Shown: positions 9,771 through 48,950 of the stretch, piece after piece
Layout of the letters: each line of letters begins with the position of its first letter
How positions within the stretch are numbered: position 1 is the stretch's first letter
Assembly: GCA_964016885.1 (NCBI GenBank)
Contig: OZ024747.1
Span: forward strand, 86,180,001-86,244,000
DNA from: Eledone cirrhosa
Lineage: Eukaryota
DNA length: 64,000 nt
Direction of reading: 5' to 3'
Notes under the pieces: generated by a model
Seen by the model: the letters and a program-made list of their open reading frames with translations, nothing else
The model's database searches: none
Told to the model about the DNA's origin: nothing
Program-made: the position numbers and the translations under genes

Positions 9771-10063
<293 letters not shown>

Positions 10064-10199: not shown

Positions 10200-10647
10200 A
10201 ATTTACAACAATGTATATATTCCTTTATAATAGGTTCTTTTAACATATTTATACAATATTTACACCGAAGACTGCTATTATTGATTATATCCTGCATGTT
10301 TTATACTGTCAACTAAACTGTTTCTTTCGGAAGTGTTCCCTAATTGGGTGTGAAACCAAGGGAACGGGGGTGAGACCGGGAGTGAGACAGAGGGAATAAC
10401 AATACCATCTTCTGTCTGACCAGAATGGAAAGAAACCTTGTGAGTGGGAGGTGTCAAGTGCCTGAAACAAACCCCTAGAACTAGCTTATGGTAGCAGATA
10501 ACTATACGTGTAGAGAACAATGGGTCTACATCCCTACCCCACCTCCATATATATATATATCGTATATTAAGATTAAGAACATAGCAAGCAAAAATATATA
10601 TTTAAGGAAATATATATATATTATATATATATATATTTTTTTCCTTA

Positions 10648-10734
<87 letters not shown>

Positions 10735-10804
10735 GGAGAGAGAGAGAGAGAGAGAATAAGGAAAAGCGAAGTAGTTTCAGATGTTCAAGTCCTTTAATAA
10801 TAAT

Positions 10805-10878
10805 GCTGTGATATATATTTCAATGACGACACTGGCCACACTGTTCTGTGTGCGAGTGTCGTGTCATCATCAGACAGC
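10805..10878 (-). ncRNA. Type I hammerhead ribozyme motif (repeat 1)
   Basis: GCTGT-CTGATGA-[long stem II TGAC..GACACT..AGTGTC GTCA]-TT-GAAA-TATATA-TC-ACAGC; predicted cut between 10810 and 10809. Confidence 0.75.
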
Positions 10879-12101
10879 TTGTTACATAATAAGCTTATGT
10901 TTCCGAGGCAATCCAAATTGAATCGACATGGGAACGGATGAATTGCGTGCTTTGGGGTTTTTCATCCGTTCCCTTGTGAGTACCAATTCACCCCCACCGG
11001 TCTGCGCAAGCGCATGTCCGAAGGAAGTTGACCATTAGCCACCGCAGATTTCAACGAAATTCGCTTAGTCAGTTCACCCTCTCACCCAAACAATGGCCCA
11101 CCTATGCCTGTACTATATTTTACTGCTACCCATCACGACTGTGGCAGTCAGCCGAAGGCCAGAGGGGATGGGAGAGTGTTAGTTTTGACAGGTCATAATA
11201 CTACCTCTCACTAAGCATTGACAGTACGACTGACCATCAACTCATAAGGGAAAATAAACTTAATTCTAGGTATCATGGTTTTACATTGGAAGTTAAGAGT
11301 GAGAGTTGGAAATAAAAATTAAAAATTAAAATCCTAAATCAAATATCAGAAATTATAAATTAAACAATTAAAAAATTAACAATTAGAAATTAAAATATAA
11401 AAAAATTTTTCAAGTGATAATTCGGATTGAGGTGAGTAAAAATATAAATTGAAGTGAGTAAATAATAAGTAAGAAGTTCTGAGAGGGTTCTAGTGTCACA
11501 GTTACTCTATCCACATATTGAACGACAGTGCCGTACATTATAACGGAGGGCAAACTACAGGGTTCAAGGCATTAGTTAATCTGGTACACAGCCATAATTT
11601 CCATCACGTGGAACAAAATCAAAGAAAAACAGACATAAAGTACACAAAAGAAAAGAACAGAACCAATAGTGAATAAATGCAAAAACACAGAGTACACATA
11701 TGCAAAATGATCCATATGATTGTCCATCTGTCCATGTATAGATTGAATTGAGGGGGCTTCTGTTCAAATGCGATTTGGTGCAGGAAAATAGGGGTTTATC
11801 TTATTTTTTGTTTCCGCGTATTTATCCTGCCGAAAGTTACTATTATGTCCGTCCAGTGTCAGGGGTTTCCATCCCCATGGTAGAGGGAATTTCCGGGGTA
11901 GCTCATGGTTGGTTCCTCTCTTCTCCACCATATCGGTTACATTGTAGAGCGCTCAACTAATTGGAGCTAAATTATTAGGGTAAATATTGATGCAATTCAA
12001 TTCAAGCACTCAACGTACTTTTTCCACATAGGAGTGACGGAGTAAATATCGAATAAGGAAAAGCGAAGTAGTTTCAGATGTTCAAGTCCTTTAATAATAA
12101 T

Positions 12102-12175
12102 GCTGTGATATATATTTCAATGACGACACTGGCCACACTGTTCTGTGTGCGAGTGTCGTGTCATCATCAGACAGC
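12102..12175 (-). ncRNA. Type I hammerhead ribozyme motif (repeat 2)
   Basis: Identical to 10805-10878. Confidence 0.75.
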
Positions 12176-12979
12176 TTGTTACATAATAAGGTTATGTTTC
12201 CGAGGCAATCCAAATTGAATCGACATGGGAACGTGTGTGTTAGATACGCAGTGACTAACAACAGAATGTTTTAAGTCTGCATGTCTGTGACATATATGCG
12301 TAGCTTGTGAATAAAAAATTCAAGGGGTCTCTGTGGCCGTGGTGATCCCTGCCAACCATCTTTTGTAATGTACCGTCTTATTGGCTAATTTCATCGTCTT
12401 ATTGGCTAATCAACCAATGAGAGTAATTGTTGCTCAAAAGCATCCGCCACTTTGTTTGCACGTTTATTTATCGTTTCGCTTTCGAATCTTCCTCGTTTAT
12501 CATCAAAATATTTTTTCTCGTTTTGGTAAGTTATATTGTTAATTTATATATGATTTTTTAAATTTATATTAACTATATTTTTTCAGTTCGTTATAACATG
12601 CTTATAATATTGGTTGTATCATATTTACTTGTATATTTGTCCATATTATTGTTCGTTTTATGTTAGATTATTTTATTATTATTATGTTAGATTATTTTTT
12701 TCATTATTATGTTAGACTATTTCTATGTAATATTTAGTTTTTATTAATTCAACTATAACAATTATTATGTAAAATATATTTATTTAATATTGATTGGTTT
12801 TTGTAGTTGTTTATATTAAAAGTCTGAAAATATTTTTATACATCTTACAATAATATTTATAAGATCATTTATAAAATAACAATTATATAATCTAATTACA
12901 TTACAACGATAATTTATTATTAATACATATCATGTTTAACTAGAGTTATTACAAGCGTTGCCTTAAAAAAATATTAAAC

Positions 12980-13374
12980 TGCGCAAGCTCAAAAGAGCCA
13001 CAAAATTGTGAGACTAGAGTTGTTGCTAAAAAATATTGTAAGCATTATCTATCGTACACTCTGTGGCATACTTTTATAACAAAGAGACTCATAACGAACT
13101 CAAGACGACATTATAATTATTTAAGTGAATTTATAATATAGAATTCGGTTTAAGTGCATTTCGTATTAATCATTACTAAACATCTAATATGAGATATTGA
13201 ACATTAGCTTAAATAATTATCGTGTCGTCTTGAGTTCGTTATGAGTCTCTTTTTTATAAAAGGATGCCACAGGGTGTACGATAGATAATGATTACAATAT
13301 TTTTGAGCAACAACTCTAGTCCCACACTTTTGAAGGTTTATTATAACATTCTGTGGCTCTTTTGAGCTTGCGCA
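12980..13374. repeat. Diverged inverted repeat (arms of about 145-165 bp, spacer of about 80 bp)
   Basis: TGCGCAAGCTCAAAAGAGCCACA...GAGACTCATAACGAACTCAAGACGACA mirrored at 13208-13374. Confidence 0.85.
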
Positions 13375-13394
13375 TTTTTCAGGTCTAGTATATA

Positions 13395-43830: not shown

Positions 43831-44244
43831 TCAACTCCGAATTGTTTCCCTCTTCAGCGAAAGTGGTTCGGACATCATCACTGGCTTCTGTAAGATAAGC
43901 AGTTCACTTTTGTCGGCGAATCTCTGTAGGGCATCGTATTTCTGTCGCAACGAGTCAAGTTCCATTTTGACAACATTGTTCTCTCGTTGCAGTCGGTATA
44001 CCTCTGCCCGTAGCTTTTCTCTCTCAATCTCCAGCTCCTCCTTCTGCGAGATCCGCTTCTCACGGCAGTTGGCGGCATAGCCTCTGTTCTTCAATGTCCT
44101 ACGACGCTGTTTTAGACGTGACACTTGCTCCCTGGTCAACCCCTTCACCACCTGGTTTAGCTCCTTCACAGTGAGTCGGACAAGTTCATCATCAGACAAG
44201 TCAAACAGTCGAGCGTTGTCAGATTTGACTTGCGATAGGAAAAT
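43831..44244 (-). CDS. MafK: Small Maf bZIP transcription factor (MafF/G/K-like), terminal coding exon; start codon in an unlocated upstream exon
   Basis: [47 protein letters not shown] plus leucine zipper; YAA and QKEELE indicate small rather than large Maf; polypyrimidine-CAG acceptor at 44245-44270 gives a phase-0 extension [15 protein letters not shown]. Confidence 0.93.
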
Positions 44245-44276
44245 CTGAAAAGACAGGAAAAATAGGAAAAATAAAT

Positions 44277-44370
44277 AATCAATAAAAACAAAAATTTAAT
44301 CAATAAAACCAAAAATTTAATCAATAAAACCAAAAATTTAATCAATAAAACCAAAAATTTAATCAATAAA
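44277..44370. repeat. 21-bp minisatellite (about 4.5 copies) beside the Maf splice acceptor
   Basis: AATCAATAAAACCAAAAATTT in tandem. Confidence 0.9.
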
Positions 44371-48634: not shown

Positions 48635-48950
48635 CCAAATCTATCAGCAACTAGGCAGATATTCAATAAGGCCCTCTTAGACAACAGTTTTCAGGACAAA
48701 ATTAAATACACAGCCAATCAATCCCAACCCAACCATACTAAAAATGCAGACAGAAAAACAAAACTTATCTGGTTTGCACCCCGCTTTTTGCTTGGTGTAA
48801 AGACTAATGTAGGTAAGAAGCTTTTAGATCTAATCGATAGATATTTCCCACTAGAACATTGATAGAGTAAAATCTTCAATCGCAATCCCATCAAAATATC
48901 CAATTCTTGTGACTTGTCTTTTAAGATAAAAAATTACCACAAAAAATAAA
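48635..48950 (+). mobile_element. Penelope-like element ORF remnant (RT thumb to GIY-YIG linker)
   Basis: Not in the ORF track because of stops: LIWFAPRFLLGVKTNVGKKLLDLIDRYFPLEH**SKIFNRNPIKISNSC resembles the PLE linker IIWFNPP..VKTNIG..FL.LIDKHFP..H.L.KIFNRN..K.SYSC. Confidence 0.75.

Follow-up and report, generated by a model that had tools for sequence, protein, structure and literature searches.

The insertion at positions 10754-12233 (minus strand) of the window, by which we mean the whole 64,000-nucleotide stretch analysed, is a 5'-truncated member of a non-coding 1.3-kb repeat family of high copy number that bears the marks of Penelope-type insertion. The family is likely a non-autonomous PLE-type element, probably an unusually long retrozyme that borrows a PLE enzyme. 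That its copies are mobilised in trans by PLE-type machinery we regard as very probable; if so, a circle is somewhat favoured as the template. The complete reading, in which a Neptune-type RT/GIY-YIG enzyme moves the element in trans from a more-than-unit RNA, probably a hammerhead-cut and re-ligated circle, is in our judgement slightly better than an even bet.

Comparison of the window with itself gave two 183-bp direct repeats, 10754-10936 and 12051-12233, offset by 1297 bp and differing only at 10894, in agreement with an earlier note on this DNA; the output of a repeat scan of the whole window was dominated by microsatellites. The insertion, on the minus strand throughout, comprises 1.14 units of what we call subfamily A, is truncated at its 5' end and consists of a single arm, without an inverted one. 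Its upstream partial unit (12051-12233) is a pseudo-LTR-like repeat whose length is set by the truncation at 12233, and its 3'-terminal repeat (10754-10936) carries the private change at 10894. The copy terminates at an end that we name E1 (10754-10761, with an internal copy at 12051), the putative first start of reverse transcription. A tail of 78 nt (11973-12050) separates E1 from E2 (11973), which is a second fixed 3' end in other copies and the putative second start. A (GA)n tract (10685-10753, plus strand) lies at the 3' junction and separates the element from a (TA)n tract (10610-10683, plus strand) that is the presumed target site; the (GA)n appears secondary to it. The four letters at the 5' junction (12234-12237, plus strand) match neither the element nor the usual start of the neighbouring repeat, and no target-site duplication was found at the junctions of the window copy, as had been claimed.

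The neighbouring repeat (12238-13388) belongs to a 1.15-kb family with long internal inverted repeats, of which 40 scored copies are 89-92% alike. Its right end is CTAG, and its left end is fixed and follows TC in 8/9 loci; judging by these ends we take it to be Helitron-like. The window copy of this repeat lacks the usual first two bases at the 12233 junction, which indicates that the hammerhead element probably inserted later. A long near-perfect palindrome at 9954-10061, between (TA)n tracts, resembles the flanks of some related loci and is possibly the stub of another inverted insertion. An exon of a Maf-type bZIP transcription factor (43834-44295, minus strand; PF03131, E 2e-28) lies 31 kb upstream on the element's strand.

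Type I hammerhead motifs are present on the minus strand at 12102-12175 (predicted cut 12107/12106) and 10805-10878 (predicted cut 10810/10809), one in each repeat as originally proposed, and the cuts would delimit a monomer of 1297 nt (10810-12106). Each motif consists of a 5-bp stem I, CUGAUGA, a 45-nt stem II region, GAAA, an 8-nt palindrome and AUC. The exact core pattern matched the genome 1246 times and its reversed control 0 times, so the motif is not due to chance. No hammerhead match was obtained with Rfam at the window locus, neither at the gathering threshold nor at E<=10, indicating that this hammerhead is atypical. Its predicted fold has an energy of -25.3 kcal/mol. The base of stem II pairs poorly in the window copy (U.U, G.U, A.A, C.C), and the core is sequestered in the fold of lowest energy, with an opening cost of 4.1 kcal/mol (1.9-4.5 in six other copies). 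Pairing in 21 natural copies from subfamilies A, B and C amounts to 96% for stem I and 100% for stem III; at the base of stem II, these copies have G.U or U.U, followed by A-U, G.U or G-C, next U-A, and finally an unpaired C.C. Covariation of stem II in these copies is weak to modest (11/500 shuffles for pairing, 50/500 for the covariation score). The core is intact in 67 of 70 subfamily-A motifs, and the palindrome in 66.

The monomer is U-rich (38% GC), and its sense strand lacks AATAAA. Folded as a circle it is no more structured than 20 shuffles (z -0.8), only its last 200 nt being structured (z -7.1). Self-cleavage and a circular 1297-nt RNA are predictions. A hairpin upstream of the hammerhead (10927-10975, minus strand) is common to the three subfamilies, as is a CGCNTGCGCA motif at 11003-11028, with ACTTCC beside it in subfamily A. 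This motif lies ~200 nt upstream of the predicted cut and resembles NRF1/ETS promoter sites, and we take it to be a putative promoter. The upstream partial unit of the window copy stops before it, so that release of a full monomer from this locus would need read-through.

Family position 48-51 (10801-10804 in the window), 5-8 nt from the predicted cut, is itself a recurrent target site. Another repeat has inserted there in a short (AAT)n, with duplications of varying length, in at least 11 of 50 insertions (L013, L015, L017, L020, L022, L028, L066, L073, L086, L087 and L088).

A genome search with the element, in which the best 40 of 2278 candidates were scored, returned at least 87 matches, mostly 85-99% identical; together with the core matches, this copy-number check shows that the locus is not single-copy. 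The anatomy of the family was studied on 30 loci from the element search, which are biased to long copies, plus the first 30 core-pattern matches. With overlaps and one diverged copy removed, these gave 50 insertions, to which L101 was added. Two diverged motifs led to the older subfamilies B and C, both non-coding and both with the ribozyme kept. Subfamily B is 76-79% identical to the window copy (its own copies 84-90% alike) and has a U-rich, non-coding body of ~1 kb homologous to that of A; subfamily C is about 70% identical to the window copy (its own copies 78-84% alike). The ribozyme core has thus been retained across ~30% divergence. Among 29 near-full units, variation amounts to 1.4-2.5% in the hammerhead and tail and 2.6-5.8% in most of the body.

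The repeats of the window copy differ at 1/177 sites against a family mean of 3.3% in 27 direct pairs (P ~0.02), which supports the view, already put forward from the window alone, that this copy is relatively young. Its nearest aligned relative is 3.1% different. Direct pairs within one insertion have on average 0.41 rare variants in common, against 0.01 between insertions, and the units of one insertion carry the same subfamily markers. The longest array seen, L101 (G000:C1:130886000-130895999), holds ~5.8 units that alternate in two types. We rejected it as a record of rolling-circle copying on account of this alternation and of differences of 0.2-1.1% vs 5%, and regard it as a later two-unit DNA duplication or an assembly effect.

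The ends of the insertions follow a consistent pattern. Terminal-repeat overlap in other copies ranges from about 140 to 1200 bases, and inner ends are spread over positions 23 to 1285, with 0/95 at the predicted cut; set aside from this count were 13 ends at 48-51, 12 of which are breakpoints of the other repeat, and one at 1260. The earlier view of an element bounded by its repeats and hammerheads as fixed ends therefore has to be given up, the length of the overlap reflecting only the point of truncation. The insertions have two fixed 3' ends: E1, located 56 nt downstream of the predicted cut, and E2, located 134 nt downstream of it. Of 152 3' ends classed, 54 were E1, 44 E2, 36 internal and 18 other. 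The (TA)n sequence adjoins 38/44 E2 ends; E1 is followed by (TA)5 at 409 places and by (TC)5 at 122, giving at least 531 exact E1 junctions genome-wide, and the sampled (TC)n junctions at E1 continue into (TA)n. Among directly read junctions, (GA)n was found at 11/54 E1 ends, and at 0/44 E2 ends. Telomerase-like stutter as the source of (GA)n at E1 was considered and rejected, because growth of (GA)n after (TA)n there matches the background: (GA)6+ occurs at 6/23 E1 ends vs 28/95 unrelated (TA)n-GA sites (3 against 42 in the same comparison for the end of an autonomous family). Hence the reported junction with (GA)n is real, in that the tract adjoins the element at 10753, but the target is (TA)n.

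Both orientations of the element occur in 31/50 insertions and a single arm in 19/50. Among the inverted insertions, 26 combine E1 with E2, none combines E1 with E1 or E2 with E2, and 5 are unclassifiable (p 1.5e-8). This strict pairing suggests one start per target end. Of 19 inverted insertions examined among these 26, 7 have arms that each include sequence the other lacks; simple fold-back copying is excluded for these 7, barring a later deletion of the centre. The arms extend to about two units, well beyond the promoter-like motif, which means that tandems have to be made anew; these arms and the direct tandems bear out the more-than-unit template that had been suggested. The copies are thus built like PLEs, with partial tandems that can be of any length, with 5' ends that scatter while the 3' ends are fixed at two points, and with inverted arms. 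Accordingly, the family displays the pseudo-LTR tandems, inverted arms, one-sided tail and type I hammerhead of a non-autonomous PLE-type element, along with a microsatellite or AT-rich target and the lack of an RT/endonuclease ORF of its own. On these grounds we retain the earlier assignment to non-autonomous elements with PLE-type hammerheads.

In the route that we propose, Pol II would transcribe from the motif ~200 nt upstream of the hammerhead; two hammerheads would then pair by way of the palindromic stem III and cleave as a dimer, and ligation would give a 1297-nt circle. The (TA)n would be nicked and reverse transcription primed from each target end, once at E1 and once at E2, with copying across the cleavage junction and onward beyond one unit. 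Inverted copies would result where the two cDNAs are joined head to head, and a copy of the window type where one cDNA is joined to the other flank. In the work on the anole PLE (PMC11167929), the PLE protein cuts AT-rich DNA and extends both strands, and the PLE tail is bounded by two internal RNA start sites of the RT; E1 and E2 would fit these two start sites. PMC4209133 presents a circle model for PLE tandems as well as dimeric hammerheads, and PMC3846280 describes trans-mobilisation between pseudo-LTRs, a tail carried by one of the inverted arms, and a model of self-priming.

All cDNAs pass over the cleavage site within 134 nt, which leaves a re-ligated circle or uncleaved RNA as the template. 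The main alternative accordingly keeps the same PLE-type element and replaces the circle by uncleaved read-through RNA of tandem masters, or by an RT that jumps back on the same RNA; the hammerhead would trim some transcripts only, and no 1297-nt circle would be involved. The absence of any end at the cleavage site, the weak, core-sequestered hammerhead, the unstructured monomer and the existence of multi-unit arrays all suit this explanation, as does the finding in PMC11167929 that hammerhead cleavage is dispensable for the anole PLE in vitro, unprocessed RNA being the main substrate. Daughters of a linear transcript, however, cannot pass its start, and many copies run hundreds of bases beyond. 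Copies that continue past the promoter-like motif into a second unit need a circle, template jumping or long master arrays. Retention of the core over ~30% divergence, and the rare variants common to units of one insertion, also weigh against read-through, which we consider possible at about one chance in three or a little less.

The circle is narrowly favoured. Several considerations, partly from modelled structures, count against the favoured reading as a whole: the inactive best fold, the weak covariation of stem II, the lack of self-pairing in the monomer, the lack of a sequence-related parent in 57 loci, and the partial origin of L101 by DNA duplication. In addition, among Xenopus retrozyme dimers 1/9 was cleaved and 8/9 were not, according to 10.64898/2026.07.22.740005. 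More tentatively, the family may be a self-standing parasitic circular RNA of 1.3 kb that has persisted over three subfamilies and outlasted any parent pseudo-LTR, and on which a PLE enzyme dimer primes both ends of the cut (TA)n on one RNA, one subunit per start site; the inverted arm and one-sided tail would then result from twin priming and not from fold-back self-priming. The arms are complementary, one E1 and one E2, in 26/26 pairs, which bears on twin priming, but the proposal as a whole is more likely wrong than right.

A second alternative holds that the repeat is an internally deleted or decayed coding PLE; its interior would be left over from an ORF or UTR, and the family would have arisen recently by deletion from an autonomous element that the genome still contains. 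The PLE anatomy is compatible with this, a 55-aa ORF comes after the tail, at a place where the ORF of a PLE may start, and Xenopus retrozymes often match PLE pseudo-LTRs (10.64898/2026.07.22.740005). The coding content argues otherwise. No ORF larger than 74 aa lies wholly inside the window copy, and 5/5 internal ORFs tested had no Pfam match, which upholds the claim of an interior without credible ORF. The 55-aa ORF itself was rejected as a coding relic, as it has a stop or frameshift in many of the 29 units, no Pfam match and no similarity to one PLE ORF (E 0.99). Searches of the window with four PLE proteins (tblastn) gave nothing at the element, and the older subfamily B already has a homologous non-coding body of ~1 kb.

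Finally, profile and BLAST searches of 57 GIY-YIG loci, out of 10,597 GIY-YIG candidates in the genome, found no parent PLE sharing the DNA or 3' sequence of the family. Following subfamilies B and C upstream led to non-coding sequence only, and the PLE ORFs beside L133, L138 and L050 were rejected as parents, being placed tail-to-tail or downstream and not linked. These results make decay of a coding PLE improbable, at roughly one chance in eleven. Scans of metagenomes with a PLE ORF and of tRNA genes returned no relatives and 0 genes, respectively.

As no DNA similarity was detected in the 57 loci, the partner can be deduced from anatomy only. Candidates are the autonomous elements L095, L097 and L098, whose ORFs of 938, 1096 and 636 aa have RVT_1 matches (two below the Pfam cut-off), 2 of the 3 having GIY-YIG as well. 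All carry a CxxxxCxxC linker, given as a Neptune/Nematis mark in PMC8557442. These elements end at (TA)n and have inverted copies (L100, L102) with unequal arm ends, and in two autonomous families the hammerheads have U on both sides of stem II, like those of the window family. Autonomous PLE hammerheads with a U3-A8 core variant and a palindromic stem III were seen at L055, L095, L096, L100, L166 and L176. At L181 (~3924, plus strand), a further motif resembling a type I hammerhead, unrelated in sequence and with 61 nt in its stem II region, lies near a GIY-YIG ORF. Within the window, a PLE protein fragment at 48662-48907 is 38% identical to the ORF in L099.

The two nearly identical direct repeats that flank a non-coding interior, together with a size close to that of plant retrozymes, could suggest a plant-like LTR retrozyme or a TRIM, that is, a non-autonomous element of LTR type whose LTRs measure 183 bp; this is very unlikely, being contradicted by the copy anatomy, as repeat length differs per copy, inverted arms are common, 5' ends scatter, there is no target duplication and the hammerhead is of type I, not type III. 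Near-identity of the repeats and the lack of a contig spanning the locus, for which four contig sets attest no more than presence, could also point to an assembly or local tandem DNA duplication, an equally slight prospect given the same unit-end/unit-start junction in dozens of unlinked copies and the one site at which the two window repeats differ.

Among known systems, plant LTR retrozymes share with the family the length scale and the two hammerheads flanking a non-coding interior. The type III hammerheads, fixed LTRs, PBS/PPT and 4-bp duplications described for them in PMC6765202 and PMC7229834 have no match here in type, fixed ends or duplications. With canonical endonuclease-bearing PLEs of Neptune or Poseidon type (PMC8557442, PMC3846280, PMC11167929 and PMC4209133) it shares pseudo-LTRs formed by a partial tandem, 5' truncation, an inverted 5' arm and a one-sided tail, as well as an AT-rich or (TA)n target and a hammerhead that has a palindromic stem III and precedes the 3' ends. 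The window family differs in its longer tail (78 nt, and ~140 nt counted by eye in subfamily C, against 30-40 in the canonical elements), in having no ORF, and in a long stem II with a conserved C.C mismatch. A further difference is the strict pairing of one E1 with one E2 counted in this family, which makes the origin of PLE inverted repeats and tails directly testable; the more than 500 insertions with identical exact ends constitute a large natural record of PLE integration.

Non-autonomous elements of Chlamys (MRC1, PMC8557442) and sequences moved in trans in rotifers (PMC3846280) likewise combine non-coding or foreign interiors with pseudo-LTRs and head-to-tail copies. They resemble autonomous families at their ends, whereas the window family has no sequence-related parent in the 57 loci, and the Chlamys clade is without canonical hammerheads, in contrast to the type I hammerhead found here (PMC8557442). 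In the published literature that we covered, which leaves aside most subscription papers and the repeat databases, neither the window family nor such a count of end pairing is described.

Animal non-LTR retrozymes are a further close counterpart. Their non-coding, low-GC, head-to-tail units with a type I hammerhead per unit and proposed mobilisation by PLEs, as set out by Cervera and de la Pena 2020 (PMC7229834) and Li et al. 2026 (10.64898/2026.07.22.740005), resemble the element in the window, as does the occurrence of two consecutive complete hammerheads. Sizes given there are 170-400 nt in the former and 51-972 bp in the latter, which set a period limit of 1000 and derived the elements from PLE pseudo-LTRs; the monomer here has 1297 nt, though supplements may list longer ones. 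Most copies of the window family are also scattered partial tandems or inverted pairs and not arrays; its monomer, unlike the retrozyme monomers described there, is not highly self-paired, and the 57 loci yielded no parent pseudo-LTR. On this comparison, the element would work like an animal non-LTR retrozyme while failing two of the described traits, size and self-pairing. If so, its ORF-free 1.3-kb unit offers a ready template for trans-mobilisation in vitro, and the family would extend animal retrozymes past the size visible to tandem-repeat screens, with insertion anatomy, and not only co-occurrence, tying a retrozyme to the PLE machinery.
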